DNA from: Gemmatimonadota bacterium
GTDB lineage: Bacteria; Gemmatimonadota; Gemmatimonadetes; Gemmatimonadales; GWC2-71-9
NCBI GenBank assembly: GCA_009692185.1
Contig: SHZT01000002.1
Location: forward strand, 33,455 to 97,454
Reading direction: 5' to 3'
Length of the DNA: 64,000 bases
This document shows, in pieces, positions 17,775-52,501 of this stretch. The position numbers were made by a program, and so were the translations under genes. The notes under the pieces were generated by a model. It searched no databases and was not told the DNA's origin. It saw only the letters and a list, made by a program, of their open reading frames with translations. How positions within the stretch are numbered: the first letter of the stretch is position 1; each line of letters starts with the position of its first letter.

Positions 17775-17782
17775 GATGGGCG

Positions 17783-32724: not shown

Positions 32725-32788
32725 TGCGGCGGCCACGCCTAACGATAGCCGACGCTCACGCCCGGCACAGTACATTTCCCCTCCTGCA

Positions 32789-34024: not shown

Positions 34025-34962
34025 CCGCGACCTGGCCGAACTTCATCATCGCCGGCGCACCCAAGGCGGGAACGACGGCGCTGTACGAGTTCCTGAGGCA
34101 GCATCCGCAGGTCTACGTGAGTCCCATCAAGGAGCCTACCTACTTCGCGCGGGCGGACCTGGCCACGTGGCGCTGGCGGAACGAGATCGCGACGCTTCTC
34201 GAAGCGGACCGCGCGCGGCTCGCGGAGTATCTGCGGGGACCCATGACCGAATGGCACCACCACCGGATGGTCACGGAGGAAGAGCAATACCTGGCCCTGT
34301 TCCGTGACGTCCGGGACGAGCGCGCGATTGGAGAAGGGAGCGTGAGCTATTTCTGGCTGCCCAGTGCGCCGCCAGCCATTGCAAAGGCAATCCCGCGCGT
34401 CAGACTCGTGTTCATGCTGCGCGACCCCGCCGAGCGTTTCTTCTCCCAGTACCTCGCCTGGGCGCACAGCAAACCGGGGCACACGGTCCGGGACCTGTTC
34501 GAGATGGCGCAGGATCCGGACAACCAGCTGTCCACGACATTGAAGCCCGGACTCTACGGGACCTGCCTCGCCCGGTTTCTCGAAGTCTTACCGAAGGAAC
34601 AGATGCGGTTCTATCTGTACGAGGATTTCCGAACGGAGCCCGGCCGCGTGTTGCGCGATCTTTTCGGGTTCCTCGGTGTGAACGCAAAGCAACCCATCGA
34701 GACGTCGCAGACCCACAACCCGCCCGCCTTGCCACGCCTGCCGCGGCTCCACGCGTTACGACAGCGCTTCCTCCGCGGCCGCTCGTTCATGGGCTTGGTA
34801 CCTTCCCCGTTTCGGCCCCTGGCCCGCCGCCTCTACCACCGGGATCGGGCGGACATCAGGTTGAACCAGGCTGACCGCGGGATGTTGATCGGCTACTACA
34901 GGAACGAGGTCAAGCAAACCGAAGCCCTGATTGGGCGTGACCTGTCAGCGTGGCTCAGGTAG
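34006..34962 (+). CDS. sulfotransferase family protein (PAPS-dependent type)
   Basis: The 5'-PSB motif is PNFIIAGAPKAGTTALYEFL, with a later RDPAERFFSQY (3'-PB-like). An alternative GTG start at 34021 overlaps the upstream stop (GTGA). Confidence 0.85.
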   Translation: MGRAPVTATWPNFIIAGAPKAGTTALYEFLRQHPQVYVSPIKEPTYFARADLATWRWRNEIATLLEADRARLAEYLRGPMTEWHHHRMVTEEEQYLALFRDVRDERAIGEGSVSYFWLPSAPPAIAKAIPRVRLVFMLRDPAERFFSQYLAWAHSKPGHTVRDLFEMAQDPDNQLSTTLKPGLYGTCLARFLEVLPKEQMRFYLYEDFRTEPGRVLRDLFGFLGVNAKQPIETSQTHNPPALPRLPRLHALRQRFLRGRSFMGLVPSPFRPLARRLYHRDRADIRLNQADRGMLIGYYRNEVKQTEALIGRDLSAWLR

Positions 34963-35862
34963 ACGCGGAACGAACGGATATAGTACGGTCTTGAAAACGG
35001 TGGTCCACCACCTGAACGCGACAAATCCCGCAGGCAGCGCCGAAGCGAGACAAGCGAACGCCGCCCGGTAGTGCCCTGCCCGCCGCTCCATGTTGGCGAC
35101 ATTGAGCCATCCCTCCACGCAGAGCCGCGCGAAACGCCGGCGGAGGCGTGCTGTCTTCAACCGGCTCGCCAGCAGGCCGAACGCGTGACGCAACACTTGC
35201 CGCGAACCCCGGAACCCGAGGCCATAGCGGCCCGCATGCTGACGCACGGCGGTCAGCGCCTGCGGCACCGGGGCGACGGGACTCCGCTCTGCGAGCCGGA
35301 TCCAGAGATCGAAGTCGCCGGTGATGACATACCGCTCGTCGAACCGCCCCACCTGCTCCACCAGCTGACGATCCGCCATGACCGTGGACGTGTGGATCCG
35401 GACGTCGCCCGACACGAACCGCTCCAGCACCCATCCGCCTTGCGGGACGAATGGCGCGGGCTCGCTCAGCGGCACGTCCCGTCCCGTGTCGTCCACGCCG
35501 CGCAGCGCCGAATAGCTCCAGGCACAGTCGCGGTTCACTGCCAGCGCTTCGACCTGGCGCGCCAGCTTCTCGGCATCCCACCAATCGTCGGAATCGAGAA
35601 ACGCGAGGTAGCGCCCGCGGGAGCGCGCCAGCGCAAGATTGCGCACCGCGTTGGGGTTGCCCAGGTGTTCGCTCAGGATCACGCGCACTCGCGGGTCGGT
35701 CAGCCCCGCAAGCCACGCACGGCTCCCATCCGTGGAGCCGTCGTCCACCACGATGAGTTCCCAATCCCCGAGGGTCTGCCGCAGGACTGACTCGACGGCC
35801 TCGCGGAGATACCCGGCGCGGTTGTAGGTAGGAATGATGACCGACACGAGCGGCTGGCTCAC
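34945..35862 (-). CDS. GT2 glycosyltransferase (paralog b)
   Basis: GTG at 35862 overlaps the upstream stop (GTGA). The sequence VSQPLVSVIIPTYNRAGYLREAVESV, LIVVDDGSTDGS, FLDSDDWW, GDFDLWIRLA aligns by eye along its whole length with 31816..32724, at roughly half identical residues. Confidence 0.85.
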   Translation of the reverse strand: MSQPLVSVIIPTYNRAGYLREAVESVLRQTLGDWELIVVDDGSTDGSRAWLAGLTDPRVRVILSEHLGNPNAVRNLALARSRGRYLAFLDSDDWWDAEKLARQVEALAVNRDCAWSYSALRGVDDTGRDVPLSEPAPFVPQGGWVLERFVSGDVRIHTSTVMADRQLVEQVGRFDERYVITGDFDLWIRLAERSPVAPVPQALTAVRQHAGRYGLGFRGSRQVLRHAFGLLASRLKTARLRRRFARLCVEGWLNVANMERRAGHYRAAFACLASALPAGFVAFRWWTTVFKTVLYPFVPRLPEPR

Positions 35863-36968
35863 GCGCGCATCTCCGCATACAGCGCTTCCACGCGTTGCGC
35901 GGTCCAATCGGCGTCCTCGGCCACGGCCCGCCGTTGAGCCTCGCGCGCAACGCGCAGGCGGCGGTCCTCGTCTCCCAGCAGGCCAGTCACCGCCGATGCC
36001 AGGGCGTCCCCGTCGCGCACGGCAACGGCCGCGTCGGGCGCCCATTCTGCGACATGCCCGACCGACGTGCCCACCGTGGGCACACCCGCAACCGCTGCTT
36101 CGAGCATGGCGAACGGGCCCGCTTCGTGTCGCGAACTCACCACCAAGACATGGGCCGCCTCGAGCAGCGGCCGCACTCGGCTCGGCGGGAGGTAGCCATG
36201 AAACGTCACGTGGTTCTCGATACCCAAGCGCGCTGACAGTGCCTGGATTTCGCCGCCCAGCGTGTCGAAACCAACCATGTCCAATCGGAAATCCACGCCG
36301 CTCGCCTTGAGACGCTCCGCCGCCTTGAGGAGTGTCGGCTGGTCCTTCACGCGGTTGAGGTCTCCCACGTGGAGCAGGCGGGCGGGTCCACCTGCCACAC
36401 GGCGCTGGGGCTTGCGCGCCGGCCAGCGGGCGAGATCTACGCCGAACGGCACGCGTTCGACTTGGTAAGCGAATTCCCCGGCCCGGTGGATCAGCGGGCG
36501 GCTTGCGGCCGTGAGTCGGGAAGCACCTGCGAGCCCCAGGCGAACCCAGAACCGCGTCCTCGCGTTCACCCATCCGCCGTAGCCGATCTCAGGAATGGAG
36601 GCGAACTCGCCGCCGGCGAGATGCACCAGCACGGGACGTCTCGTGAACAGCCCGGCGGCCTCCGCAATCAATCCGGCCGGCAGGAGCCAGAATGCGTGGA
36701 GCAGATCGAACGGACTCCGCCGGTGCTCGGCGACGATGTTCGTGAACGTGCGCCAATAGGCGCGCCGCCGCCCGCGCCCATGAGCACCCCCGTTGTGCAC
36801 CGTCGCGCCAAGGAGCGGGTACATGGAGGGCTCCGCCTCCTGGTGGAGCGCAAACACCTGCACATCGTGTCGCCGGGCAAGCCGTTCGATCAGCGCGAGG
36901 AGATAGGGAAACGATCGTTCGTCGCCGGACCGGTCCACGCCGCCTGGCGTGACGAGCGCAATCCTCAC
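35859..36968 (-). CDS. GT4 glycosyltransferase (GT-B, group 1)
   Basis: 369 aa starting MRIALVTPGGVDRSG, with the C-terminal GT4 signature VVSSRHEAGPFAMLEAAVAGVPTVGTSVGHVAEW. The GTG start overlaps the PIG-L stop. Confidence 0.85.
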   Translation of the reverse strand: MRIALVTPGGVDRSGDERSFPYLLALIERLARRHDVQVFALHQEAEPSMYPLLGATVHNGGAHGRGRRRAYWRTFTNIVAEHRRSPFDLLHAFWLLPAGLIAEAAGLFTRRPVLVHLAGGEFASIPEIGYGGWVNARTRFWVRLGLAGASRLTAASRPLIHRAGEFAYQVERVPFGVDLARWPARKPQRRVAGGPARLLHVGDLNRVKDQPTLLKAAERLKASGVDFRLDMVGFDTLGGEIQALSARLGIENHVTFHGYLPPSRVRPLLEAAHVLVVSSRHEAGPFAMLEAAVAGVPTVGTSVGHVAEWAPDAAVAVRDGDALASAVTGLLGDEDRRLRVAREAQRRAVAEDADWTAQRVEALYAEMRA

Positions 36969-37861
36969 GAATCCGTCCGCCGGGACTCAGTCAGGCGACG
37001 CAGGTGCCGGCGTTCTCCGCGGCCGAGCGCGAACGCGAGCGGATCGGTGAACGACAAACGGCGGAACCCACGAAATGCTTCGTGCACCGGCGGCTCGGTG
37101 ACTTCGGCATGAAGCGCGACGTAGGTCCCGGCCGACATTTCCCAGAATTCCTCGGCGCCGCCCGCGAGCCCATGCGAACGGGCGGCGTACTGCTTGAGGC
37201 GGAGACTCGCGCGCAACGATCCTGCCTGCGAGGCGTATTCCTCAGCCGCGCGAAGCGTGTCCGGAAGGACCTCGGCCACGGGGGCAACGAGGTTGACCAG
37301 CACGCGCGTCAGGGGGACTTGCACCTGGTAGATCCGTACGGCGGGAGCCGACTCCGTATACGTCGCCAGGGCGGCCGCGAGCGCGCGCGCGACCCGGCGG
37401 TGCTCTGGATGAAAGTCGACCCGGGACGGGGCGTAGATCACCCCCGGGCGGTGTGCGGCGAGCGCTCGGGTCAGTGCACTCACCCCTTCGGCGTCGGCCC
37501 AATCCCATTCGCGGAGGCCGATCCACTCCCAAGCCGTTACGCCGAGTGCCCGGAGGGCGGTTTCAGCTTCGGCGTGACGGCGTGCCGCCATCTCGTCGGG
37601 CCCAAGGCCCAATGCCCGGGAGCCGCGGCCGTCGGTCACGTGCACGACGACCGTGTCGTCTTCCGCGCGACGATGCAACGCCAGGGTTCCGCCCGTTCCG
37701 GCAACTTCATCGTCGGGGTGCGGCGCGATGACCATCACGCACTTGCCGCCGGCGCCCACCCATCGCGGAACTGGCGGTGTCAGTCGCCCGGCGCCGGCCA
37801 CGCCGGCCGCCCAGACCCGGGATATCACGGCGTCCACCGCCCTGCCCGCGCTATACAGCAT
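36965..37861 (-). CDS. PIG-L/LmbE family N-acetylglucosaminyl deacetylase
   Basis: The signature is VMVIAPHPDDEVAGTGGTLALH. The start is uncertain, either ATG 37861 (11-nt overlap) or ATG 37897 (47-nt overlap with the upstream gene). Confidence 0.8.
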   Translation of the reverse strand: MLYSAGRAVDAVISRVWAAGVAGAGRLTPPVPRWVGAGGKCVMVIAPHPDDEVAGTGGTLALHRRAEDDTVVVHVTDGRGSRALGLGPDEMAARRHAEAETALRALGVTAWEWIGLREWDWADAEGVSALTRALAAHRPGVIYAPSRVDFHPEHRRVARALAAALATYTESAPAVRIYQVQVPLTRVLVNLVAPVAEVLPDTLRAAEEYASQAGSLRASLRLKQYAARSHGLAGGAEEFWEMSAGTYVALHAEVTEPPVHEAFRGFRRLSFTDPLAFALGRGERRHLRRLTESRRTDS

Positions 37862-38906
37862 CGAAATCACCACCGGACAACTGCCACCCCGGCTCACGCC
37901 GCCAGACGGCCCAGGCGACCGCCGGGTCGAGAATCACGCCATGGACGCCGAACGCGTGACGCCCGCTGAAGAAGCCCAGCCGGCGGTACGCGCGGTACGG
38001 CCAGCTCCCGGGCACCGCCAGCGCGCGGACGACCGCCACGCCATCGGCGGACAACCGCTGAACGGCGCTCCGCACCAGCGCGGCAAACGCCGGCAGGTCA
38101 TCCGGAGACGTGAACACTTCGCCGATCAGGCCGCCGCCGTCACGCACACGCAATGCCAGAAACCCGGCAGCTTTTCCTTCGCGTTTCACCTGGAGCACGC
38201 GGAACCCCGCGCCAGACGCATCGAGGTAGCGCCAGTTGATCCAGTCGGCATCCCGGGCAAAGCAGGGGCCCAGTCGCGGCCGGAGCGCTCGCCAAAACGC
38301 ACTCCATTCCTCACCAGCCCGCTCGAGTTCGCTGACCACGATTCCCCGTTCGGCCGGGCCGTCCCACAACCGGTTCCACAGTCCATCGACCCACGCGGCG
38401 TCCGCCAATGCCGCGATCCCGAACCGCCGGGCGATGATCTTCTGCGGCAGGATGGGACGCACGAGCCACGCCAACGGAAACATCGGCTTCCAGCCGAGGG
38501 CGGAGATCCGCGAACGCCATTGATCGTTCGGGAGACCCAGCACGAGCGCCACGCCCGCTGCGCGCCAGCGATCAAAGAGACCCGATGTCACCTGGGTCAG
38601 GACGCCCTGCCTTCGCCACGCGGGGTCCGTCATGCCGTCCACGGCCACCATCACCCAGCGGTCTTCGTTGCCCAGCCGCACGCGGCACGGAATCCCCGCG
38701 AGGTGAAACATCGGGCGATCGTTGCCATCCACGGCCAGGGCCACGTTTTCGACCGGAGTCGGGCGCGTGCGGAGTTTCCAGATGTAGTGCTCCGCGCTCG
38801 TGGGCCGGCCGAACGCGCGGTGAAACAGGTCCACCACGCCCGGTACATCAGCCGCGATAAACGGCCGTTCCCTCCAGGCCGGCGGGCCCCCGGGTCCTCC
38901 GCTCAT
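37851..38906 (-). CDS. GNAT family N-acyltransferase (two-lobed, about 351 aa)
   Basis: ATG at 38906 overlaps the upstream stop (ATGA). GNAT motif A is WRRQGVLTQVTSGL. A second acyltransferase-like half follows (FRVLQVKREGKAAGFLALRV). Confidence 0.65.
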   Translation of the reverse strand: MSGGPGGPPAWRERPFIAADVPGVVDLFHRAFGRPTSAEHYIWKLRTRPTPVENVALAVDGNDRPMFHLAGIPCRVRLGNEDRWVMVAVDGMTDPAWRRQGVLTQVTSGLFDRWRAAGVALVLGLPNDQWRSRISALGWKPMFPLAWLVRPILPQKIIARRFGIAALADAAWVDGLWNRLWDGPAERGIVVSELERAGEEWSAFWRALRPRLGPCFARDADWINWRYLDASGAGFRVLQVKREGKAAGFLALRVRDGGGLIGEVFTSPDDLPAFAALVRSAVQRLSADGVAVVRALAVPGSWPYRAYRRLGFFSGRHAFGVHGVILDPAVAWAVWRREPGWQLSGGDFDAV

Positions 38907-40015
38907 GCAACCCGGCCCAGACGCCGGTACGCCGCGACCATCTGTCGTCCAATCGCGTCGAACGAGAGGGCCTGCTCGAAATGATGGCGGGCCCGAGTGC
39001 GGAGTTCGGCCCGGTCGCGCCCCGCCCATTCACGAATCACGCGTGCCATGGCGGTGCTGTCACCCGTGGGGACGACCGCGCCGGCGGACCCCTGCCCCGT
39101 GATCGTCCTGAACGACGGAATATCCGTGACGAGGGGCGTGGTGCCGCAGGCCAGCGCCTCGATGACGCCGTACCCGCTGCCTTCCTTGTGACTCGCCTGG
39201 ACCAGGAAGTCAGCGGCGCGGAAATGCTCCTCGATGCCCGGATACGCGACTTCTCCCACCAGGCGGACGCGGTCGCGGATCGCCGGGTCGCCCGCGATAC
39301 GGGCCCGGACTTGTTCCAGGAGGGGCGCGAACCGATAGCACATCCAGAGCCGCACGCCCGGGACGCCGGCTGCGACGGCCGAAACCGCGTCGAGCACCAT
39401 CAGCGGATCCTTGTTCGCGTCCAGGTTCCCCACCCAGAGGAGGCACGGGTCGCCATCTATGCCGGTCGCGCGGCGCGCGGTCGCGACGTCGCCTGGAGCA
39501 AATGGCGTCGAACCCTCGACCACTTCGAACACCGGGAGGTCCGCCCTGAGAACCCCGGCCGCCTTGAAGGCGAGCGCCTGGTCGGTCGCGGTGAACATGA
39601 CGCCGGCCAGCGGCGAAAACCCCCACCCATGGAACCAGCGGCGCCAGAAGCGCCCGGGAACGCCACTCCCGTGATCCTGTGCCACGATGGGGACCGAAGG
39701 AAGCTGCCGCGCGAGCGCACGGAGTTCCGACGGGTATATCAGCCCCTGCCAGTGAATAACGTCAGGCCGAGTGGCGGCGATCTGGTCCCGGAACGCGGGC
39801 AGTTCCACGAACTGGCACGAGACGCCACCAATGGTGTGCACCGCCTCGGTCCACGACGCCTGCACGACCGTCATGTCCACGCCCGCGCGCTGGGCGGCGG
39901 CGGCGCTGGCGCCGAAATCCCGCCAGGCGCGCAGGAGCTCCGCGGGGGCTCGGTGCGCGGGGTCGCGGTAAGTGCTCACCTGTGTGACACGCAGGCGGCT
40001 CGAGGTTGGCGGCAT
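38903..40015 (-). CDS. GT4 glycosyltransferase (GT-B, group 1)
   Basis: ORF 38903..40357 trimmed to MPPTSSRLRVTQVSTY (ATG 40015), because longer starts overlap the divergent gene. The signature is LVQASHKEGSGYGVIEALACGTTPLVTDIPSFRTI. Confidence 0.8.
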   Translation of the reverse strand: MPPTSSRLRVTQVSTYRDPAHRAPAELLRAWRDFGASAAAAQRAGVDMTVVQASWTEAVHTIGGVSCQFVELPAFRDQIAATRPDVIHWQGLIYPSELRALARQLPSVPIVAQDHGSGVPGRFWRRWFHGWGFSPLAGVMFTATDQALAFKAAGVLRADLPVFEVVEGSTPFAPGDVATARRATGIDGDPCLLWVGNLDANKDPLMVLDAVSAVAAGVPGVRLWMCYRFAPLLEQVRARIAGDPAIRDRVRLVGEVAYPGIEEHFRAADFLVQASHKEGSGYGVIEALACGTTPLVTDIPSFRTITGQGSAGAVVPTGDSTAMARVIREWAGRDRAELRTRARHHFEQALSFDAIGRQMVAAYRRLGRVA

Positions 40016-40208
40016 GAGGTCGGAAGGGTGACACGGAAGGCGCGGCAACGTCAATGCGCACCCTCTGGCAAAAGCCCTCCGACGCATTAGGGTTAGTAAG
40101 CCAGTTCTGGTCCGCCCGGCGTCCACGCAGGAAACCCAAGGGAGTCGCACCGTTACCACCGCCGCCCCAGCGCTTGCCCGGCAGACGTACGTCCTGCCCC
40201 GCGACGCC

Positions 40209-41117
40209 ATGACCGTCACTGCCGACGACCCGCGCCTCTTGGCGCTGGCCGACCGGCTATGGCCTGCCGCCGCGGGGGAGACGGGAAGCAGCCTGCCGCC
40301 CATACAGATCGGCCTCCGGGTCGATTCCCCGGGCGCCGCCTTTGAAGGGCGGCTCACGGAGTCGTGGACGGTTCAGCGCGATGCCGTCGAGCTCCGGCTC
40401 GGCAGCCAGCTGAGCGTGACCGCCGATGTTACGAGCGCTTCGATTTCAGGCTGGGTGAGCGCCGACCTGCTGGAACATGACCCGGGCCTGATCGCCCGGC
40501 TGCTGCTCGAAGTCCCCGTCGCCGCCCTGCTGCAACGCCGCGCGTACGCCGCCATCCACGCGGCCGCGATCGCGGGCCCTCGCGGCGCCGTGGTCCTGCG
40601 GGGGGCGCCCGGGTCCGGAAAATCCACGCTGGCCGCCGCCGCTCACCTGGCCGGCATGGACGTCCTCGGCGACGAGAGTGTGCTCGTAGCGAGGGATGAC
40701 CCGGATGAACTCCTGGCGGCCGTGCGGGACCCCACGCTCGAGCCGGACACCGTGCGCCTGCTCAACCTGGACGAACGGCTCTGGCCGGCCACGGAACGTA
40801 TTGGCCCCAAGCAGCGGCTGGATTTATTTGCCTCGGCGAACGCGAACGGCCGGGCCCGGCGGCGGATCGCGACCGTCATACTGGGACCGCGCAGCGGCCC
40901 GGCACGCCTCGACCCCCTCAATGCCGAAACGTTCACGGCGGAGTTCCAGGCCGGGGGCATCCGGGAGGAACTCTGGGCGGACCCCGCGCCTCGCATCGAG
41001 TCAACGTGGTCGCAGAGGGGCGCGTATCGCCTGTCGGGCGCCGGCGATCTCCGCGGGGCCATCACCTTGCTGGCGGCTTTGGTCGGACACACCCCTGAAC
41101 CAGGGAGCCCTGCATGA
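40209..41117 (+). CDS. HPr-kinase-related P-loop protein
   Basis: 302 aa. The central AAIAGPRGAVVLRGAPGSGKSTLAAAAHLAGMDVLGDESVLV resembles the HprK/P C-terminal domain P-loop context. A family-unassigned N-terminal domain of about 130 aa precedes it. Confidence 0.6.
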   Translation: MTVTADDPRLLALADRLWPAAAGETGSSLPPIQIGLRVDSPGAAFEGRLTESWTVQRDAVELRLGSQLSVTADVTSASISGWVSADLLEHDPGLIARLLLEVPVAALLQRRAYAAIHAAAIAGPRGAVVLRGAPGSGKSTLAAAAHLAGMDVLGDESVLVARDDPDELLAAVRDPTLEPDTVRLLNLDERLWPATERIGPKQRLDLFASANANGRARRRIATVILGPRSGPARLDPLNAETFTAEFQAGGIREELWADPAPRIESTWSQRGAYRLSGAGDLRGAITLLAALVGHTPEPGSPA

Positions 41118-42580
41118 ACCCTCTCTCGTCAGAACGCGTCCCGGTCCTGCTGTCGCATTCCTACTACCTCAAGTACGACCCGAAGCAGGTCCGGAAGATG
41201 AAGCCTTATGCCCCGCTTTCGACGTTGATCACCGCGTCGACCCTGCGGGATGCGGGCATGCCGTTGCAGTTATTCGACTCCATGCTGTCAGAGGGCGTTG
41301 AGGAGTTCGTCGACCGGGTTCGCGCGGCGCGGCCCAAGGTGGTCGCGATCTTCGAGGACAACTTCAATTTTCTGACCAAGATGTGCACGACGCGGATGCG
41401 GGACGCCGCGTTCACCATGATTGCCGCCGCGAAGGATGTGGGCGCCCGCGTCGCCGTGAACGGATCGGACGCGACCGACCAGCCGGACGGCTACCTCGCC
41501 GCCGGGGCCGACGCGGTGGTCCTCGGCGAAACCGAACACACGTTTCTCGAGCTGGCACACACGTGGCTCCGCGACGCACAGGCGGACCTCACAGACGTTG
41601 CGGGCCTCGCGCTGGGCGGCCCGACGGGCGCCGAGCCGCGGTTTACACCGCAACGCCGGTCGGTGGGGGACCTCGACGCGCTCCCATTCCCCGCGTGGGA
41701 CCTGATCGACATCGAGCGGTACCGCGAGGCGTGGACAACGGCGCACGGCCGGTTCTCGTGGAATGCCTGCACCTCCCGTGGGTGTCCCTTCGGCTGCAAC
41801 TGGTGCGCCAAGCCCATGTTCGGGCGCCGCTACACCCAGCGCACGCCGGGCAACGTGGCCGAGGAACTGTCACGCCTGGCCCAGGTCGTGCGCCCGGACC
41901 ACCTGTGGTTCGCCGACGACATTTTCGGCCTCACGTCTGCGTGGATCGAGTCGTTCGCCCGTGAAATGGGCCGGCGCCAAGTGAAAATCCCGTTCTCCAT
42001 GCAGTCCCGCGTGGACCTCATGACCCCCACCGGTGTCGAGGCTCTCGCCGCGGCGGGATGCGAAGAGGTCTGGCTCGGCGTCGAGTCCGGCTCGCAGAAG
42101 ATCCTGGACGGCATGAACAAGGGGATGTCGGTGGACGAAGTGGGCGACGCCACCAGCCGGCTCAAGGAGCACGGCATCAAGGCATGCTGGTTCATTCAGC
42201 TGGGGTACTCGGGCGAGAACTGGGACGACGTGCTGGCGACGAGAGACCTGGTGCGCGCCGAGCGTCCCGATGACATCGGCGTGTCCGTGGCATATCCGCT
42301 GCCGGGCACCGTTTTTTACGACCGGGTCCGCGCCGAGTTGTCAGCCAAGGAGAACTGGTCGGACAGTGACGACCTGGCCATGCTGTTCCGCGGCACGTAC
42401 ACCACGGATTTCTACCGGCAGATCCGGGACCTGCTCCACGAGGAGGCTCTGGCGCTCGCGAACGTCCATCCCATGGCCGAATGGCCGTTCGACGCGCGGT
42501 GGGATGCCCTGAAGGACCGGGAAGCAGACCACCGGGCGGAATCTGCGGTGGTGGCGAAGCGGGCAGTGTTGGGGGGATAA
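41114..42580 (+). CDS. B12-binding domain radical SAM protein (rSAM-1)
   Basis: The ATG overlaps the upstream stop (ATGA). The N-terminal B12-like Rossmann is LLSHSYYLKYDPKQVRKMKPYAPLSTL and the cluster motif is CTSRGCPFGCNWCAKP. By eye it belongs to the same subfamily as 49042..50331. Confidence 0.85.
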   Translation: MNPLSSERVPVLLSHSYYLKYDPKQVRKMKPYAPLSTLITASTLRDAGMPLQLFDSMLSEGVEEFVDRVRAARPKVVAIFEDNFNFLTKMCTTRMRDAAFTMIAAAKDVGARVAVNGSDATDQPDGYLAAGADAVVLGETEHTFLELAHTWLRDAQADLTDVAGLALGGPTGAEPRFTPQRRSVGDLDALPFPAWDLIDIERYREAWTTAHGRFSWNACTSRGCPFGCNWCAKPMFGRRYTQRTPGNVAEELSRLAQVVRPDHLWFADDIFGLTSAWIESFAREMGRRQVKIPFSMQSRVDLMTPTGVEALAAAGCEEVWLGVESGSQKILDGMNKGMSVDEVGDATSRLKEHGIKACWFIQLGYSGENWDDVLATRDLVRAERPDDIGVSVAYPLPGTVFYDRVRAELSAKENWSDSDDLAMLFRGTYTTDFYRQIRDLLHEEALALANVHPMAEWPFDARWDALKDREADHRAESAVVAKRAVLGG

Positions 42581-42601
42581 GAACTCACGAAGGAGGCGCT
42601 T

Positions 42602-43504
42602 ATGGCCGTCGCCAACCTACGTACCACCTCGGTCCCAGCCGACCTGGGGCGCAAACCCCGCGACGTCGAGCTCGATCTCTTCGGACTCACCCACACCGGA
42701 AAGGTCCGCAAAGCGAACCAGGACCATTTTCTGGTGTGCACCGTCCACCAGCAGATGGTCGTGCATGGCACCAGCCTCCCGAACACGGATCACCTTCCCC
42801 TTCGCGGCGAGCGGCTGGCAACAATCCTCCTCGTGGCCGACGGCGTCGGGGGCGGACAGGCGGGCGGCGAAGCGAGCCAGGTCGCGGTGGAAGCCGTCAC
42901 CCGGTACGTCACGTCCACCATGCTCTGCGTGCACGCACACACGGGGGTCGCAGAGCAGGACTTCCTCCAGGCGCTCCGGGCAGCGGCCATTGATGCACAC
43001 CAGGCGGTGCGGGCGGTGGGAACGGGCCGGGAGGACACGCGGAGCATGGCGACGACACTCACGCTCGCGATCTTCGTCTGGCCCACCATGTACGTGGTCC
43101 AGGTCGGCGACAGCCGCTGCTACCTCTACATGGACGGCGTTCTGCGCCAGGTGACCCGCGATCAGACCGTGGGGCAGTACATGGTGGACGTGGGAGCGTT
43201 GCCGGCCGAGCGGCTGGCAGAGTCGCCGCTTAATCGAGTGCTATCGAGCGCGATCGGGGGGAGCGAAGCGGAGCCGGTCGTGAGCCGCCACGAACTGAAC
43301 CGCACCGCCCGCGTGCTCCTGTGCAGCGACGGCTTGACCAAGCACGTCTCGAACGACGAGATCACGGAGCGAATCAAGGCGGAAGAGTCTTCGGAGCAAT
43401 TCTGCCGGGCGCTGCTGGACCGGACGCTGGAGCGGGGGGGCAGCGACAATATCACCGTGCTGGCGGGAAGGCTCCAGTCTGCGCCCCACGGGGCCGCGGT
43501 TTGA
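42602..43504 (+). CDS. PP2C family Ser/Thr phosphatase
   Basis: GAAGGAGG lies 6 nt (gcgctt) upstream of the ATG. Motifs are GLTHTGKVRKANQDHF, LLVADGVGGGQAGGEAS, LCSDGL and GGSDNITVL. Confidence 0.88.
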   Translation: MAVANLRTTSVPADLGRKPRDVELDLFGLTHTGKVRKANQDHFLVCTVHQQMVVHGTSLPNTDHLPLRGERLATILLVADGVGGGQAGGEASQVAVEAVTRYVTSTMLCVHAHTGVAEQDFLQALRAAAIDAHQAVRAVGTGREDTRSMATTLTLAIFVWPTMYVVQVGDSRCYLYMDGVLRQVTRDQTVGQYMVDVGALPAERLAESPLNRVLSSAIGGSEAEPVVSRHELNRTARVLLCSDGLTKHVSNDEITERIKAEESSEQFCRALLDRTLERGGSDNITVLAGRLQSAPHGAAV

Positions 43505-43558: not shown

Positions 43559-44119
43559 ATGTTTCCCTCCAGAATGACCGCGCCGCTAACAGCCGCCGAG
43601 CTTGAGCACCTGTCGTTTCCCGACAAGCAGGTAGAACTGATTCGGGGACGGCTCGTGGTGCTCGAACCGCCCAGTTCGTGGCACGGCGCGGTCTCGGTGA
43701 ATCTCAGCACCCAATTGAGCAATTTCGTCCGGCGGCACGCCCTCGGCGTCGTCTTCGGGCAGGATACCGGGTTCAAGATCTTCGCTGATCCCGACACGGT
43801 TCGGGCCGCCGATGTGGCGTTCGTCGCGCGGGAGCGGATGTCCGGATTCCCGCGAAGGGGGTACGCCGCAGTCACGCCGGACCTGGTGGCCGAGGTCCTG
43901 TCGCCGGACGATCGCGCCGGAGAGGTGCTGGCCAAAGTCGCCGATTGGTTGAGAGCGGGGGCGCGAGCGGTGTGGGTCATCGATCCGCAGCGGGCCCAGG
44001 CCCTGGTCTACCGGCCAGACGGAAGCCTCTCGATCGTGGGAGAGCACGATGCGCTGGACGGAGAAGAGATACTGCCCGGCTTTTCCTGCTTGCTCAGCGA
44101 CATCCTGGCAATCGCGTAG
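43559..44119 (+). CDS. Uma2 family (DUF820) endonuclease
   Basis: 186 aa with VELIRGRLVVLEPPSSWHGAVSVNL, VRAADVAFV and PDLVAEVLSPDD. It uses noticeably more A/T-ending codons than its neighbours. Confidence 0.8.
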   Translation: MFPSRMTAPLTAAELEHLSFPDKQVELIRGRLVVLEPPSSWHGAVSVNLSTQLSNFVRRHALGVVFGQDTGFKIFADPDTVRAADVAFVARERMSGFPRRGYAAVTPDLVAEVLSPDDRAGEVLAKVADWLRAGARAVWVIDPQRAQALVYRPDGSLSIVGEHDALDGEEILPGFSCLLSDILAIA

Positions 44120-44180
44120 AGGCCCGACAACCGAGCCGTCCCGGTCTCAAGGGCGGGCCCGGCCCGCACCCTCACCACAG

Positions 44181-44207
44181 TCCCCTCTCCCGAACCGGGA
44201 GAGGGGA
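44181..44207. repeat. perfect 10-11 bp GC hairpin (REP-like) between convergent genes
   Basis: CCCCTCTCCC (44182-44191) pairs with GGGAGAGGGG (44197-44206) around a 5-nt loop. There is no T-run on either side. Confidence 0.6.
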
Positions 44208-44262
44208 ACGGCATCAGATCTCGACCGAGCCCGTGCTTGAGCCGAGGACCAAAACGCGCGGC

Positions 44263-44554
44263 TCAGGGCTCCTTGCCGCCGCCTGCCGCGCGTGGCCCGG
44301 CCGAGAACAGGTTCTGCACGAGGATCAGATCCGGCGCCTCGTCACCACCCAGTTTTACAAAGACGAAATGCTGGCCGTCGGGGTGGACGTCGTAGGCCGC
44401 GAGGGTTCCGCTTGTCCGGTATGGCGCTACGAACAACGGCGTCCGATTGCCTACCGCAAACGCGGGTTGCGTGCGGACCTGAGCCGCAAACAACGTGCCC
44501 GCCTGCCGATAAAAGAGCTCCCGGCGGCGGCGTTGAGTCGTTCGGTGTTGCCGG
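44263..44554 (-). pseudogene. 3'-terminal remnant of a PD40/TolB-like beta-propeller gene
   Basis: The frame reads ...ELFYRQAGTLFAAQVRTQPAFAVGNRTPLFVAPYRTSGTLAAYDVHPDGQHFVFVKLGGDEAPDLILVQNLF, the typical last blades of PD40 propeller proteins. It has no N-terminal part or proper start, and its upstream end runs into the vapC stop. Confidence 0.5.
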
Positions 44555-44968
44555 TCACGTCCTGAATCCCTCGCGCACCGCCGCCTCGCGCAACCGGTCG
44601 TCGAACGTCACGAACTCCCCCTCGGGTGGCGCACCGGCCCACTCGAGCGCGGCCGCCAGCTGGAGCGCATCGGCCGCCCGCAGCGCATGCACGCGCAGCA
44701 ACCGCAGGGCCTGCTCGCGCACCACGTCACCGGGCTGCACTTCAAACCAGCTCTTGCGAAGCGTGTCGAGCAACGACCGGGCATCGCGCTCGGCGGACGA
44801 CGTGAGCTGATCCTCGCGGCGCATGCGGGCGATGGCCGACGCGCATGCAACGGCGCTGCCCCACCAGACCACGAGTTCGTCGTCCTCCTTGAGCAACCCT
44901 CGCGCCTCGCTGGTGCGCGGCTGCTGGAGCACGAGCGGCACGAGCGCGGAAGAATCCCAGAACTTCAC
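44555..44968 (-). CDS. vapC: type II toxin, PIN domain (VapC-like)
   Basis: 137 aa starting MKFWDSSALVPLV, with RAADALQLAAAL and FVTFDDRL. The GTG start overlaps the antitoxin stop. Confidence 0.85.
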   Translation of the reverse strand: MKFWDSSALVPLVLQQPRTSEARGLLKEDDELVVWWGSAVACASAIARMRREDQLTSSAERDARSLLDTLRKSWFEVQPGDVVREQALRLLRVHALRAADALQLAAALEWAGAPPEGEFVTFDDRLREAAVREGFRT

Positions 44969-45258
44969 CAGCCCGACTCCCGTTCGGCGAGGAGCGCCGT
45001 GAGGCCCCGGCCCTTCGGGTCCGCCGGGCGCTTCCGGTCCCAGAAGCCCTTGGGCAGCCTGGCGCGCGGGGCGCGGAGGCGCCCGGTGCGAATCATTTCC
45101 TCGCGGCGCCCCTCGACGAACTGCGCGCCCGTCACCGGCGCCAGCCGGGCGATGGGACGCCCGCGATCCGTCACCAGCACTTCATCGCCGCGACGGACGA
45201 TCTCGAGAAAGGCGCTGAGCCGCGCCTTGAGGGCTGACACCGATGCGGTCTTTATCAT
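44965..45258 (-). CDS. type II antitoxin, Phd/YefM family
   Basis: 97 aa starting MIKTASVSALKARLSAFLEIVRRGDEVLVTDRGRPIARLAPV. Confidence 0.85.
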   Translation of the reverse strand: MIKTASVSALKARLSAFLEIVRRGDEVLVTDRGRPIARLAPVTGAQFVEGRREEMIRTGRLRAPRARLPKGFWDRKRPADPKGRGLTALLAERESGW

Positions 45259-45334: not shown

Positions 45335-46750
45335 TCAGGACATGGTCGCGACCGGCCTCAGCCGCTCCGACACGAACTTCTCCAGTGGGAAGCCGTAGGC
45401 ATCATTCCGGCACCGCCACCGGGCAATCGCCTGTGCCGGACGTTTCCACAGCGGCACGCGGTCCCACGCCAGGCGCTGGTAGAACTTGAACCGCTCCACC
45501 CGCTGGAACTTGGCCCCAGTCACCCACGGCCCGGCCGACCCGATGAAATCGAAATTGGCCCACTCGTCGAGCGACTGCGGCAACCGGTAGCCCTGGTTCA
45601 CCGCGTCCTGCGTGATGGCTGACCCGGGGTACGGCTTGAAATAGAAAATGTGCGTCTCGAAGTCGGGGCTCATGGCGCGGAGCCGCTTGGCGAGGGAGAA
45701 CGATGCCGCGACACTCTCGTCGTCCTCTCCCGGGAATCCCACGATGAACGGGAACTGGACTCGCAGTCCCAGGACCCGGCACCGTTCCGCCGTGATCATG
45801 ATCTGTTCGATCGTCACATCCTTGGCGATCCGCTTGAGCATTTCGGGTGAGCCTGATTCAACGCCCACCAGCACCCGCCGGAGCCCCGACCGCTTGGCCG
45901 TCTGGAGCACGTCGTCCGGCATTCGGGCGCACTGGTCCGCCCGCATGGTGGCCGCCCAGCTGATCGGCAGCTTCCGGCGAATGAACTCCTCCGCGATCGC
46001 CACGACGCGGGGCGCCTGGGTGAAGAACGTCTCGTCCTGAAAATTGACGTCGGTGAAGTGGTACTGTCGCCACCACGTTTCGATTTCCTGCCCGATGCGT
46101 TCGGGGGCGAGCCCCACCCAACCCCTCTTATAGACGAACGGATCCGCGCAGAACGCACAGCGGAACCGGCACCCCTGCGAGGCGATGTAGTCGAGTTGCG
46201 GCTTGCCCTTGAGCGCGTAGAAGCGATCAACCGGGATCAGTGAATAGTCGTGGGGCCGGAACGTGTTGATGTCCGCCAGCGGGCGGGGCGGGTTCTCGAT
46301 CGGGGAGCGGCCAATGTCGCGATAAGTCGTCCCGAGGCAACCCTCCAGCGAGTCTCCCCGCTCCAGCCGCTCGACCACCTCGAGGAACGTGGCTTCGCCC
46401 TGCGCCTGCACGGTGATATCCACGCTCGGCTCTTCGAGACACTCGGTCCCGAACATGGAAGGGTGCCAGCCGCCCCACACGATGGGGAGGTCCGGCCGCA
46501 TCGCCTTCACCGCACGGGACATACGAACGGCGTCCCGGATCGGCAGGCCGGTCAGCACGGTGACCCCGACGCAGATCGCCCCATCGAGATGGGCCCGAAT
46601 CGCCGCCTCCGGGTCCTGCTCGATTCGGCCATCCACGATGACCACGTCGTAGCGCTCGCGCGGGAGGTGCGACCCCAGCGCGATGAGCGCGAGCGGCATG
46701 GTATAAAAGTCCACGCGCGGATTGTAGAGGACCACCTTCGGGCGGGTCAT
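45335..46750 (-). CDS. B12-binding domain radical SAM protein (rSAM-2)
   Basis: ORF 45335..47422 trimmed to MTRPKVVLYNPRVDFYTMPLALIALGS (ATG 46750, ATGA overlap with the upstream stop). The cluster motif is IASQGCRFRCAFCADP, and a DUF4070-like tail follows. Confidence 0.85.
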   Translation of the reverse strand: MTRPKVVLYNPRVDFYTMPLALIALGSHLPRERYDVVIVDGRIEQDPEAAIRAHLDGAICVGVTVLTGLPIRDAVRMSRAVKAMRPDLPIVWGGWHPSMFGTECLEEPSVDITVQAQGEATFLEVVERLERGDSLEGCLGTTYRDIGRSPIENPPRPLADINTFRPHDYSLIPVDRFYALKGKPQLDYIASQGCRFRCAFCADPFVYKRGWVGLAPERIGQEIETWWRQYHFTDVNFQDETFFTQAPRVVAIAEEFIRRKLPISWAATMRADQCARMPDDVLQTAKRSGLRRVLVGVESGSPEMLKRIAKDVTIEQIMITAERCRVLGLRVQFPFIVGFPGEDDESVAASFSLAKRLRAMSPDFETHIFYFKPYPGSAITQDAVNQGYRLPQSLDEWANFDFIGSAGPWVTGAKFQRVERFKFYQRLAWDRVPLWKRPAQAIARWRCRNDAYGFPLEKFVSERLRPVATMS

Positions 46751-47520
46751 CGCCGCACGAACTCCAGCTGATAGTGATCTGCCAGCCACGGCAGGGGCGG
46801 CACGGTTTCGATCGCCCGTTCCCACCGCACCAGGGTCTCCGTGACCGCCGGGTGCCGCCTGGCCCACGCCTCGGCGTAGGGCGGCGGCACGATCGCCCCG
46901 ATGGCCCCCGCGCGCACAAAACGGAACGTGTGGCCGAACACCCGCCGCAGGGTCCCGATGGTGGGATACCGGACCGTCATTCCCCGCCACTCCACACCGC
47001 CCCGCCGGAGCCGCCGAAGCGCCTTCCCGGGCTGCCCGCGCAACATGTACCAGGCCCACTCCCACGGAACGACCGGACCCATGATTCCGAGGACGAGCCG
47101 CGCCTGCGGGCGGAGCCGTTCCGCCAATCGGTCCACGACTGTCGCCATCTGCGGAACAAGGTTCAGGGCGCCGAAGCTCGAAAACGCGCCATCGAATTTT
47201 CCCGCCAGCTCGCCGATGTGCTCCGCATCCACCTGAAGGGCGGTGACCATGCCGCTCAATCCCGCAGCGGCTGACTTTGCGCGCGTCGCCTCGATCATGG
47301 CGGCCGACGGATCCGTGGCCACGACCCGAACGCCCCGATGCGCGAGGTGGATCGCATCTTCCCCGGTGCCGCAGCCGATTTCCAGCACCTGCTGGCCCGG
47401 TTCGAACGCCTGGTCGAGCCACGCCCAGGTCGCTTCCCGGTACACCCGGCCCAGCACCGAGTCGGTAAACACGGCGTCATAGGACTTGGCCAGCGCATCG
47501 AACGCGGACACGGCATTCAC
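46747..47520 (-). CDS. class I SAM-dependent methyltransferase (MT-1)
   Basis: 257 aa with a GTG start and motif I VLEIGCGTGEDAIHLA. Confidence 0.8.
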   Translation of the reverse strand: MNAVSAFDALAKSYDAVFTDSVLGRVYREATWAWLDQAFEPGQQVLEIGCGTGEDAIHLAHRGVRVVATDPSAAMIEATRAKSAAAGLSGMVTALQVDAEHIGELAGKFDGAFSSFGALNLVPQMATVVDRLAERLRPQARLVLGIMGPVVPWEWAWYMLRGQPGKALRRLRRGGVEWRGMTVRYPTIGTLRRVFGHTFRFVRAGAIGAIVPPPYAEAWARRHPAVTETLVRWERAIETVPPLPWLADHYQLEFVRR

Positions 47521-47558: not shown

Positions 47559-48377
47559 ATGCCGACCACAGCAATTTCGCCCGACCGCCTCGCGCGCTTC
47601 CGCGCGGCCTACGCGCTGCATCGCGAGGCCGAGGGCCGCCGCTTGGACCCAACCGACCTGGCGGCCCTGCCCTACCTGGATCACGGCCCGTTCCGGCGTG
47701 AATGGTCGGTCCGCGCCCGGACCTTCGAGGCGCTGGTTCACAACGTGGTCACGCCCCTGGCGAAGGGGGCCTCCCTCCGGATCCTCGACGTCGGGGCCGG
47801 CGCCGGATGGCTGTGCTTCCGGCTGATACGAGCCGGGCACCACGCGATCGCACTGGACTGGCGATGGGACCAGGTGGACGGCCTCGGCGCCGCCCAGGGT
47901 TACCGGGTGCACCTCCAGCATAGAGACTTGTTTGATCGCGTGGGCGCCTCGTTCGACGCCCTGCCGCTGTCCGCTCAGGCGTTCGACGTCGTCGTCTTCA
48001 ACGCCGCCATTCACTATGCTGAGGACCTGGCACCCGTGTTGGCTGAGGCGCGTCGCGTGGTGCGGCCGGGCGGGCGCATCGCCATCCTGGATTCGCCGTT
48101 CTACGCCCGCGCCGCCGATGGCGACCGCATGGTCGCGGCAAAGCGCCGCGAAGGCGCGCGGGTCTTCGGCAAGCACGCGGAAGCCTTGATGGCGCTGCGG
48201 CCCATTGAGTACCTCACGACGAAACGGCTCGCGGACGCTTCGGCGCCGCTGGGGCTCACCTGGCAGCGCCATCACGTGCGGTATCCCCTGTGGTACGAAC
48301 TGCGGCCGCTGGCTGCGCTTCTGTCCGGGCGGCGCCGGCCATCCCGCTTCGATCTCTGGGTAGGAGTGGTTTCGTGA
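47559..48377 (+). CDS. class I SAM-dependent methyltransferase (MT-2)
   Basis: 272 aa with motif [16 protein letters not shown], then [12 protein letters not shown] and PGGRIAILD. Confidence 0.8.
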
Positions 48378-49045
48378 AGCGTCCCCAGGCGGCCTTCGAG
48401 CCCTTGCCGGACTATCGTGAGTACCCGGCGCCGGAGATGGAGTCGCGTGCCCGCGCGTTTGCCGCAGACATGCAGCGCCGCCGCACGACCCGTCACTTCA
48501 GTGACCGGCCGGTGCCGCGCGCGGTGATCGAAGCCTGTCTCGAGACCGCGGGGTCCGCGCCGAGCGGGGCGAACCAGCAACCTTGGCACTTCGTGGTCGT
48601 TTCCGAGCCTACGCTCAAGCGCGGGATTCGGGAGGCGGCCGAGCAGGCCGAAGCGGAGTTCTACGCGAAGGCGCCGGCGGAGTGGCTGGAGGCGCTGGCC
48701 CCCCTGGGCACCGACGCGCGCAAGCCATACCTCGAGACGGCGCCCTACCTCATTGCCGTTTTCGCCCAGCGCTTTGCCCCCTCACCGTCCGGCAAGCGGC
48801 GGACGCACTACTACGTGAACGAGTCCGTCGGCATCGCGACCGGTTTTCTGCTGGCCGCCCTTCATTACGCCGGTCTGGCCACGCTCACCCACACCCCGAG
48901 CCCCATGGGGTTCTTGAACGATCTTCTGGGCCGGCCGGCCAACGAGAAGGCGGTCATGCTGGTCGTCACCGGATACCCGGCGCCGGACGCCAGGGTGCCC
49001 CGCATCCGTCGCAAGACCCTGGACGAGATCGTCACGTTTCGGTGA
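48374..49045 (+). CDS. nitroreductase-superfamily flavoprotein, iodotyrosine-deiodinase-like
   Basis: GTG at 48374 overlaps the upstream stop (GTGA). The sequence [45 protein letters not shown] ... [30 protein letters not shown] closely follows the bacterial IYD pattern as I remember it. Confidence 0.7.
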
Positions 49046-51384: not shown

Positions 51385-51386
51385 TG

Positions 51387-52383: not shown

Positions 52384-52501
52384 GGGACGGCTCTCCGGAA
52401 CAGGGGGTGTTGGCGACTCCATTGAAACTACCGGATGCCGGGGGAAGTTCCCAGACCTGACGAGGTAGCCGAGCCGAGCCCGGCCGCTAGAATAGTGATT
52501 G

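Follow-up and report, generated by a model that had tools for sequence, protein, structure and literature searches.

A predicted HprK-like protein and a predicted B12-binding radical SAM enzyme are encoded by a conserved gene pair in an uncharacterised cassette of Gemmatimonadota and Acidobacteriota, with a PP2C phosphatase gene as a probable lineage-specific neighbour

The DNA analysed here is a stretch of 64,000 nucleotides from a Gemmatimonadota bacterium (contig SHZT01000002.1, positions 33,455 to 97,454), hereafter called the window. Three consecutive genes of its plus strand code for an HPr kinase (HprK)-like protein, named ORF1, a B12-binding radical S-adenosylmethionine (SAM) enzyme, named rSAM1, and a PP2C-type phosphatase. 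An earlier note on this DNA had described them as one tightly coupled operon that might run a cycle of phosphorylation, radical modification and dephosphorylation. The comparison with related loci points to the ORF1-rSAM1 pair, and not to the trio, as the functional unit and as the most tightly linked part of a larger cassette. This cassette is conserved and uncharacterised, and is found in Gemmatimonadota, in Acidobacteriota (Thermoanaerobaculia) and in other soil bacteria. We favour, with moderate confidence, the explanation that the pair belongs to a cassette decorating a glycoconjugate through amino-sugar tailoring, the PP2C gene being incidental and no phosphatase cycle taking place. The three genes are the following.

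40209-41117, plus strand: ORF1, 302 aa, with a TGA stop codon at 41115-41117
41114-42580, plus strand: rSAM1 (B12-binding radical SAM), 488 aa, with an ATG start codon at 41114-41116 and a TAA stop codon
42602-43504, plus strand: PP2C gene, 300 aa, with an ATG start codon at 42602

The ORF coordinates and the ATGA shared by the ORF1 stop and the rSAM1 start, both described in the earlier note, were confirmed in the sequence at 41114-41117. The rSAM1-PP2C intergenic region (42581-42601) is indeed 21 nt long and contains the reported Shine-Dalgarno sequence, GAAGGAGG, at 42589-42596, 5 nt ahead of the ATG at 42602. A simple sigma-70 promoter and terminator scan, which has limited value for a Gemmatimonadetes genome, showed no promoter-like or terminator-like site between the three genes. 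ORF1 is 100 % identical to the NCBI protein EXR93_01935, labelled MAG hypothetical protein [Gemmatimonadetes bacterium].

Conservation of the pair was followed through several collections of loci. Contigs carrying ORF1 homologues were looked up, and all proteins of the window cluster were compared against the loci fetched. A genome-collection search returned only orthologues from Thermoanaerobaculia/Acidobacteriota together with distant HprK-like genes. A metagenome scan with rSAM1 yielded at least 559 relatives, of which the best 80 loci were retained, and adjacency was counted only at loci with at least 1 kb of flank (54 evaluable upstream and 52 downstream). An ORF1 orthologue was located directly upstream of rSAM1 in 43 of these 54 metagenome loci, in 24 cases co-directional and in 19 divergent. 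Wherever the earlier loci offered sufficient sequence (L001-L012, L014-L016 and L057), the ORF1 orthologue likewise stood directly ahead of rSAM1, and the rSAM1 orthologues found behind ORF1 orthologues at the fetched loci were 55-86 % identical. Of 30 orthologous loci with co-directional genes, 15 retain a 4-nt [A/G]TGA overlap and another 5 have the two genes at -8 to +1 nt, so that the overlap exceeds chance. The pair is present across phyla, in Gemmatimonadota as well as in Thermoanaerobaculia/Acidobacteriota. Of the three-gene coupled operon, the ORF1-rSAM1 coupling is therefore the part that is conserved, while the PP2C gene is not co-conserved.

The PP2C protein exhibited Pfam matches to PP2C_2 (PF13672, 62.3 bits for a cut-off of 24) and to PF00481 (41.2 bits for a cut-off of 20.3), and the metal-binding motifs ADGVGGG, VGDSR, CSDGL and GGSDNIT can be read in its translation. 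It resembles the Stp1/PrpC-type PP2C enzymes that act with Hanks kinases by its 174 bits to NF033484 (Stp1-type), its PP2C_2 match of 62 bits and the catalytic motifs DGVGG, GDS, SDG and GSDN. It differs from them by a score below the equivalog cut-off of 230 bits, by an N-terminal extension of about 55 residues and by its placement after a radical SAM gene, which is unusual but unconserved. The protein is thus predicted to be an ordinary Stp1-type Ser/Thr phosphatase of Gemmatimonadetes, standing as a lineage-specific neighbour outside the conserved cassette. Its homologues numbered 7910 at E <= 1e-20, the best 120 being 62-80 % identical and the named ones almost all from Gemmatimonadetes. 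This family is about 300 times larger than that of ORF1, for which the homologue search gave 26 matches. A Hanks-type Ser/Thr kinase, the more usual partner of a PP2C, is encoded in the window at 52499-54361, with a C-terminal half weakly resembling a TauE membrane protein.

Downstream of rSAM1, no PP2C gene was found in any of the 52 metagenome loci, and loci L001-L054 contained no PP2C homologue. The nearest relatives, L059 (87 % identical), L011 (86 %) and L008 (81 %), also have no PP2C after rSAM1; in L011 a GC-rich element, not a PP2C start, lies behind the rSAM1 stop. Outside the window, the trio was found in order in one lineage (L057/L058) among more than 60 evaluable loci, that is, the 52 metagenome loci and about ten others. 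There a PP2C orthologue (77 %) lies behind ORF1 (68 %) and rSAM1 (76 %) with a spacer of 87 nt, the 21-nt spacer being particular to the genome of the window. Behind this PP2C orthologue come a small gene of aspartyl-protease-like type and a PD40 beta-propeller gene on the opposite strand. Two further PP2C orthologues occupy other contexts: one (L055, 75 %) has a DUF4159 gene on one side and a gamma-glutamyltranspeptidase gene on the other, and one (L056, 66 %) adjoins squalene-hopene cyclase and HpnH genes. In this last locus (L056 3800-6915) the PP2C gene is divergent beside the cyclase and the HpnH-like radical SAM gene, probably by coincidence.

The near-absence of the trio from other lineages thus almost refutes it, and since the trio is not a functional unit, the cycle built on it has no comparative support. 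In that cycle, ORF1 would phosphorylate a substrate, rSAM1 would modify it and PP2C would dephosphorylate it, or else ORF1 and PP2C would form a phospho-switch on rSAM1. We consider it very unlikely. The arrangement on one strand, the ATGA overlap, the 21-nt gap with its ribosome-binding site, the lack of a detected terminator and the identical gene order in L057/L058 are what speaks for it. They are opposed by the absence of PP2C after rSAM1 in all 52 metagenome loci as well as in the three nearest relatives, by the unrelated contexts of the 66-75 % identical orthologues, by the very unequal sizes of the two families and by the slot in which PP2C lies, which also holds a gene remnant, a toxin-antitoxin pair and a Uma2 gene. 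Established enzymology argues in the same direction, as HprK/P undoes its own phosphorylation by phosphorolysis, making a PP2C unnecessary, and as the substrates of PP2C enzymes are the phospho-Ser/Thr residues of proteins, their usual partners being Hanks kinases. Such a cycle would represent a new regulatory or biosynthetic logic, and the comparative data argue against it. In this genome the PP2C gene is probably read through from the radical SAM operon, yet the system does not need it. A functional unit is thus not established by close spacing and a good ribosome-binding site on their own.

The identities that had been proposed for rSAM1 and PP2C agree with Pfam domains above cut-off in both proteins; ORF1 required a longer argument. 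Against Pfam it showed weak generic P-loop matches only, and single-sequence and profile searches against PDB chains gave P-loop noise, with phosphoenolpyruvate carboxykinase (PEPCK) listed at E 0.4-1; the fold was therefore placed by structure comparison. The AlphaFold2 model built from the family alignment has a pLDDT of 90 and a pTM of 0.88. All of its top 50 Foldseek matches were PEPCK or HprK/P (probability 0.89-1.0, E 5e-6 to 8e-4), PEPCK from E 5e-6 and the HprK/P structures 1ko7, 1kkl and 1jb1 at E of about 5e-4, with low TM-scores of 0.26-0.43. Among NCBIfam models, TIGR04352 (HprK-related kinase A, HprK_rel_A) matched residues 111-164 with 43.4 bits for an equivalog cut-off of 200 bits, and TIGR04355 gave 24 bits. 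All 25 aligned members of the ORF1 family matched TIGR04352 below threshold and 12 of the 25 matched TIGR04355. The model of HPr kinase/phosphorylase proper (PF07475, gathering threshold 33.3 bits) did not match the ORF1 of the window and gave weak sub-threshold matches in two of the 25 members (E < 0.01); one family member weakly matches the FomB kinase model. Invariant or nearly invariant in the 25 sequences are H117, the P-loop G132-APGSGKST-140 (G132-x5-GKST140) and G154-D155-E156, which were equated with HprK residues by pattern and not by superposition, and R173, K201 and R203 are also invariant. Among 1.84 billion representatives, the ORF1 profile retrieved 43 clusters at E <= 1e-30, which form the family proper; their number rose to 568 with a limit of E <= 1e-10 and to 13,303 with one of E <= 1e-3.

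From the model and the alignment, ORF1 is predicted to have the fold and the motifs of the HprK/PEPCK phosphotransferases, as a distant and unclassified member that is neither an HprK/P nor a TIGR04352 equivalog, and it is probably a kinase. The relationship to HprK proposed in the earlier note holds at the level of the superfamily, through TIGR04352, Foldseek and the His, P-loop and Asp-Glu motifs, and fails at every curated family cut-off. With HprK/P and PEPCK, ORF1 shares the fold, the P-loop, the upstream His and the acidic pair. It departs from them by the low TM-scores, the missed PF07475 threshold, a different N-terminal domain and the surrounding genes, as Pfam scans of the cluster ORFs (window 25-55 kb) detected no HPr or phosphotransferase system gene. 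A second comparison is offered by the HPr-rel-A system of TIGR04352, which we take, from the NCBIfam/TIGRFAMs descriptions, to consist of HprK-related kinase A, a PqqD-family protein and a nucleotidyltransferase. The sub-threshold matches of the whole ORF1 family and a PF14907 nucleotidyltransferase gene in the cluster recall this system. The score of 43 bits instead of 200, the absence of a PqqD-family gene among the cluster ORFs scanned and in the gene tables of related loci, and a B12-binding radical SAM partner that is foreign to the system set ORF1 apart from it.

The rSAM1 protein matches Radical_SAM (PF04055, 67.4 bits) and the B12-binding domain (PF02310, 36.8 bits for a cut-off of 32.1), and its CxxxCxxC motif reads CPFGCNWC in the translation. 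We predict a class B (B12-binding) radical SAM enzyme with an N-terminal B12-binding domain followed by the radical SAM core. It reached no NCBIfam equivalog cut-off: the best match was HpnJ with 109 bits for a cut-off of 577, and the HpnJ, BchE, MgmA and PhpK models all gave 95-109 bits for cut-offs of 360-600. Two sister enzymes are encoded in the same cluster.

45335-46744, minus strand: rSAM2, B12-binding radical SAM (Pfam), convergent with rSAM1 and abutting it in most close relatives
49042-50330, plus strand: rSAM3, B12-binding radical SAM, with orthologues in L001, L002, L003, L005, L016 and others

No radical SAM enzyme of the cluster reached an NCBIfam equivalog, as HpnJ, BchE, MgmA, PhpK and the B12 radical SAM of ladderane lipids all scored about 85-140 bits for cut-offs of 360-600. 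ApyD and rSAM_ocin_1, two families from ribosomally synthesised and post-translationally modified peptide (RiPP) pathways, were among the sub-threshold matches of these searches. Among solved structures, MgmA (9ccb), AprD4 (6fd2) and CysS are the closest to rSAM1, MgmA being a protein methylase (PMC11796369). A phosphonate or P-methylation reading, raised by sub-threshold matches to PhpK, Sden_1168 and FomB, was rejected, the cluster having no phosphoenolpyruvate (PEP) mutase and the scores being no better than those of other B12-binding radical SAM families.

ORF1 adjoins rSAM1, and not rSAM2 or rSAM3, in either orientation, and its translational coupling to rSAM1 is conserved. If ORF1 were not a substrate kinase but used ATP to assist rSAM1, for instance by loading its cofactor, reactivating it or delivering its substrate, the specific association of ORF1 with rSAM1 would be explained. 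We nevertheless regard this role as improbable, as the fold and the motifs of ORF1, including the His and the Asp-Glu pair, are of the phosphotransferase type of PEPCK and HprK/P, and as the recurrent pairing of HprK-like and PF14907 genes fits the modification of a substrate better. We know of no HprK-fold protein in an accessory role to a radical SAM enzyme.

The cluster that surrounds the pair spans about 31.8 to 50.8 kb of the window. Its left part consists, in order, of GT2 (glycosyltransferase family 2), PF14907 nucleotidyltransferase, sulfotransferase, GT2, GT4 (family 4), PIG-L, GNAT and GT4 genes. The right part contains ORF1, divergent from the last GT4 gene, then rSAM1, a variable slot, rSAM2 and the methyltransferase MT1 (both on the minus strand), the methyltransferase MT2, a nitroreductase-family gene, rSAM3 and a gene for a 147-aa protein of unknown type.

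32687-34962, plus strand: PF14907 (NTP_transf_5) nucleotidyltransferase, with the PF14907 match at 32687-34024 (62 bits), and sulfotransferase
35859-39029, minus strand: GT4a glycosyltransferase, PIG-L family de-N-acetylase and GNAT (Acetyltransf_9), from Pfam, in an order also found in L001, L002, L006, L060, L068 and L069
38903-40015, minus strand: GT4b glycosyltransferase (Pfam), divergent from ORF1
46747-47520, minus strand: MT1, class I SAM methyltransferase, cassette core, conserved beside the radical SAM genes at most loci
47559-48377, plus strand: MT2, class I SAM methyltransferase, cassette core
48290-49045, plus strand: nitroreductase-family flavoprotein (PF00881, 82 bits)

The cluster order as a whole is common to the Gemmatimonadota-type loci, namely the six listed for GT4a. 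In several lineages rSAM2 is even closer to rSAM1 than in the window: its orthologue directly abuts rSAM1 in L001, L002, L007, L008 and L059, and in L008 the two stop codons are adjacent. The Acidobacteriota/Thermoanaerobaculia loci and many metagenome loci have a smaller core of ORF1, rSAM1, MT1, MT2 and rSAM2 or rSAM3, often with PF14907 and GT4 genes and sometimes with a SPASM radical SAM or an amidohydrolase gene. The core cassette thus comprises two to three B12-binding radical SAM enzymes, two class I SAM methyltransferases, a PF14907 nucleotidyltransferase and a GT4, to which the Gemmatimonadota cassette adds a second GT4, a PIG-L de-N-acetylase, a GNAT, GT2s and sulfotransferases. Other glycan genes accompany it in places, a Wzx-like Polysacc_synt gene and a sulfatase gene in L003 and a GT9 (family 9) gene in L001 and L002.

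The PF14907 gene also occurs at the cassette loci L003, L005, L016, L080, L081, L097, L113, L118, L126, L127, L133 and L137. Beyond the cassette, a PF14907-like gene was found near about 20 of 38 distant HprK-like genes from named genomes, often adjacent to them, so that the HprK-like kinase and the nucleotidyltransferase make a recurrent module. One of the distant HprK-like genes, which scores 32 bits against the ORF1 profile, lies in a Candidatus Eremiobacteraceae metagenome-assembled genome (MAG) (L027 1700-12500) and stands divergent beside rSAM1-, rSAM3-, MT1-, MT2- and rSAM2-like genes with an adjoining PF14907-like gene; the cassette therefore reaches a third phylum, in which its kinase has diverged far more.

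The divergent arrangement of GT4b and ORF1 is conserved in L001, L002, L006, L007, L009, L011, L060, L065 and L068. The earlier note had seen in the divergent region a sign of co-regulation with the glycoconjugate genes, and the conserved arrangement in Gemmatimonadota-type loci is consistent with one functional cluster. The 193-bp length given for this region is less firm. A motif conserved at the N-terminus of ORF1 family proteins, YVxPRDA (here YVLPRDA), is encoded in frame at 40188-40208, that is, 5' of the ATG at 40209, and no ATG, GTG or TTG was found ahead of it. Either ORF1 starts at a non-canonical codon, such as the CTG at 40194, or its start is shifted; as the true start is uncertain, so is the spacer to GT4b.

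Minor matches of individual cluster proteins were also recorded. The best NCBIfam match of MT1 is the corrinoid protein-associated methyltransferase CpaM (73 bits for 180) and that of the nitroreductase-family protein is BluB (58 bits for 150), both of which would fit a cluster rich in B12 enzymes. A B12-cofactor theme drawn from them was dropped, the two scores being far below cut-off. Besides ordinary GT4 models, GT4a (35859-36968) passes PF20706, 'GT4 in conflict systems', with 29.0 bits for 26.

What the loci establish for the cassette is linkage, and the following mechanism is a proposal. A GT4 enzyme would add N-acetylglucosamine (GlcNAc) to an acceptor, PIG-L would take the acetyl group off this GlcNAc and GNAT would re-acylate the freed amine. 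The B12-binding radical SAM enzymes and the methyltransferases would then methylate or rearrange the product, and the sulfotransferases would sulfate it. ORF1 would phosphorylate a hydroxyl, and the phosphate might be extended by the PF14907 enzyme or be itself the handle recognised by rSAM1. A glycoconjugate substrate is favoured because no RiPP machinery was found and because the fixed and the variable neighbours are glycan-tailoring enzymes. Fosfomycin synthesis provides a precedent for priming the substrate of a B12-binding radical SAM enzyme by a kinase or nucleotidyltransferase, as the methylase Fom3 acts only on a substrate first cytidylylated by the nucleotidyltransferase Fom1. The analogy is mechanistic only, as the cluster has no phosphonate genes (PEP mutase). 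More specifically, and only tentatively, the HprK-fold kinase could phosphorylate a sugar or another hydroxyl of a cell-surface glycoconjugate and so create a phospho-handle, perhaps extended by the PF14907 enzyme, that rSAM1 needs for methylating or rearranging the substrate, which would be an undescribed two-enzyme step. The product would then belong to a class of heavily C- and O-methylated, sulfated and phosphorylated glycoconjugates widespread in soil Gemmatimonadota and Acidobacteriota, and ORF1 would be the first HprK-like kinase working outside proteins and peptides in such a pathway.

A peptide substrate has the closest described relatives. In the accessory set of Firmicutes lasso-peptide clusters, an HprK-like kinase (PadeK/ThcoK, PsmK) occurs with a PF14907 nucleotidyltransferase (PsmN) and a sulfotransferase, as in the window; the kinases phosphorylate the C-terminal Ser of the precursor and, in pseudomycoidin, the nucleotidyltransferase then adds a hexose to the phosphate (PMC8498205). 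In these clusters it is thus known chemistry that a hydroxyl is phosphorylated and the phosphate then extended. In a RiPP pathway of the window, ORF1 would phosphorylate a Ser of an unannotated precursor, as happens with the lasso peptides paeninodin and pseudomycoidin, the PF14907 enzyme would glycosylate the phosphate and the B12-binding radical SAM enzymes would C-methylate residues. Such a pathway would also accommodate the SPASM radical SAM genes of L003, L005 and L012, the protein methylase MgmA as nearest solved relative of rSAM1 and the sub-threshold ApyD and rSAM_ocin_1 matches. The cluster differs from the lasso clusters in having no lasso cyclase, B1/B2 protein, precursor or ABC exporter, in its distant ORF1 (43 bits to TIGR04352) and in the pairing of ORF1 with a B12-binding radical SAM enzyme amid glycosyltransferases. 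No lasso precursor, Asn-synthetase-like cyclase or B1/B2 leader peptidase was found in the window cluster or in L001-L016, and no PqqD/RRE domain, other peptidase or peptide exporter in the cluster or related loci. A crude cross-locus search for conserved small intergenic ORFs (25-140 aa, outside long ORFs, 16 loci) clustered only shadow ORFs of real genes, a result of low power that is not evidence of absence. As the variable genes are moreover of glycan-tailoring types (SGNH, carbamoyltransferase, glycosyltransferases and sulfotransferases), we judge a RiPP pathway unlikely.

A membrane lipid was weighed as well. Hopanoid head-group chemistry, as Schmerk et al. are said to have described in 2015, is reportedly performed by a glycosyltransferase, a PIG-L-type deacetylase and an HpnJ-type radical SAM enzyme. 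The substrate of the cassette could likewise be a hopanoid-like, polyprenyl or alkyl lipid with a glucosamine head group, and the radical SAM enzymes would methylate or rearrange the lipid or the head group, as HpnP/HpnR or HpnI-HpnK-HpnJ do. HpnJ is the top NCBIfam match of both rSAM1 and rSAM2, with HpnR and the ladderane-lipid B12 radical SAM also listed; GT4b weakly matches GlcNAc-phosphatidylglycerol synthase. The combination of a glycosyltransferase adding GlcNAc, a PIG-L-family deacetylase and an HpnJ-like radical SAM enzyme with a B12 domain mirrors the HpnI/HpnK/HpnJ route to the glucosamine/cyclitol-ether head group. The HpnJ scores of rSAM1 and rSAM2 are only 109-114 bits for 577, far below cut-off and similar to those of BchE, PhpK and MgmA. 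No hopanoid core gene, neither a squalene-hopene cyclase nor a lipid synthesis gene, was found in the cluster, and its kinase, methyltransferases and sulfotransferases have no counterpart in the hopanoid route. A lipid substrate therefore seems to us unlikely.

The decoration of a glycoconjugate, with PP2C as a bystander, remains our preferred explanation, and several points weigh against it. The described HprK-like tailoring kinases act on peptides and not on glycans (PMC8498205), and both the SPASM genes of three cassette loci and the protein-methylating MgmA are compatible with a peptide substrate. PIG-L and GNAT genes are missing from the Thermoanaerobaculia-type loci, so that not every cassette would perform the amino-sugar steps. 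The scores of ORF1 fall far short of the curated TIGR04352 and PF07475 cut-offs, and its kinase activity is predicted from the fold and the motifs only. Concerning PP2C, its adjacency to rSAM1 is common to two lineages that are about 24 % divergent in DNA, and in the window the gene lies behind a strong ribosome-binding site with no terminator found. In the neighbour-joining tree of rSAM1, made with no bootstrap, the groupings ((L008, L009), L057) and (L011, (L059, window)) place the two PP2C-bearing loci in different sub-branches. The presence of PP2C is thus patchy within a small clade and needs two losses or two gains, and the gene might still have acquired a local role in this lineage.

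To our knowledge, HprK-like tailoring kinases have so far been found with lasso peptides only, and their range would grow if the substrate here were a glycan or a lipid. Our open-access literature searches returned no paper combining HPr kinase, radical SAM and B12, and nothing relevant linking HprK, radical SAM, PqqD and nucleotidyltransferase; PF14907 was mentioned once, in a phosphonate survey. The HprK-like/B12 radical SAM pair is strongly conserved and translationally coupled, and the cassette lies on hundreds of soil metagenome contigs, to judge from the rSAM1 relatives. It occurs in two phyla or more, and none of its members is characterised, although it is built from known kinds of enzymes. 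The function of B12-binding radical SAM enzymes is hard to assign, and a conserved kinase partner would point to a phospho-intermediate as a handle on the substrate. The pair is therefore a reasonable target for substrate discovery.

The junction between rSAM1 and rSAM2, into which the PP2C gene is inserted, contains further genes in the window.

43559-44119, plus strand: Uma2-family putative endonuclease (PF05685, 111 bits), absent from all related loci
44263-44493, minus strand: remnant of the C-terminal end of a PD40 (beta-propeller) gene, about 230 nt (blastn to L057)
44555-45258, minus strand: PIN (VapC-like) toxin and Phd/YefM antitoxin pair (PF01850, PF02604)

The region 43559-45258 is a patchwork of these elements in front of rSAM2, and a promoter-like site for the PIN/Phd pair was found at 45293-45265 on the minus strand. 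By blastn, window 44360-44532 matches L057 3584-3757, within the 3' end of a gene for a 554-aa PD40 protein. In L060, L061, L067, L068 and L072 the junction holds instead one or two SGNH/GDSL (AlgX-like) genes and a NodU/CmcH-type carbamoyltransferase gene. These genes suggest an exchange of O-acyl and O-carbamoyl decorations from lineage to lineage. The different cargo of other lineages and the PD40 remnant common to the window and L057 mark the junction as a variable slot. As PP2C and PD40 occur together in L057 and the window keeps a PD40 remnant, the two genes would have entered the junction in some ancestor, the region having been remodelled later. Downstream of Uma2, the window carries a perfect 10-bp GC-rich hairpin, CCCCTCTCCC-GAACC-GGGAGAGGGG (44181-44207, local fold z-score -3.1). 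At the very end of contig L011 (3000-3022), directly after the rSAM1 stop, a 23-mer that overlaps the left arm of the hairpin is found again with 3 mismatches. The hairpin may be a repeat of the repetitive extragenic palindromic (REP) kind, at which assemblies break.

Two other regions of the window were recorded. The region 50737-54361 contains an MsrQ-like (Ferric_reduct) and MsrP-like (Oxidored_molyb) pair on the minus strand, followed by the Hanks-type kinase gene. At 14198-21976, four large ORFs (about 495-716 aa) exhibited a coding-like GC content at third codon positions and no Pfam match; they adjoin GT2 genes at 19779-20489 and 22015-23199 and may belong to a second surface-polymer locus.

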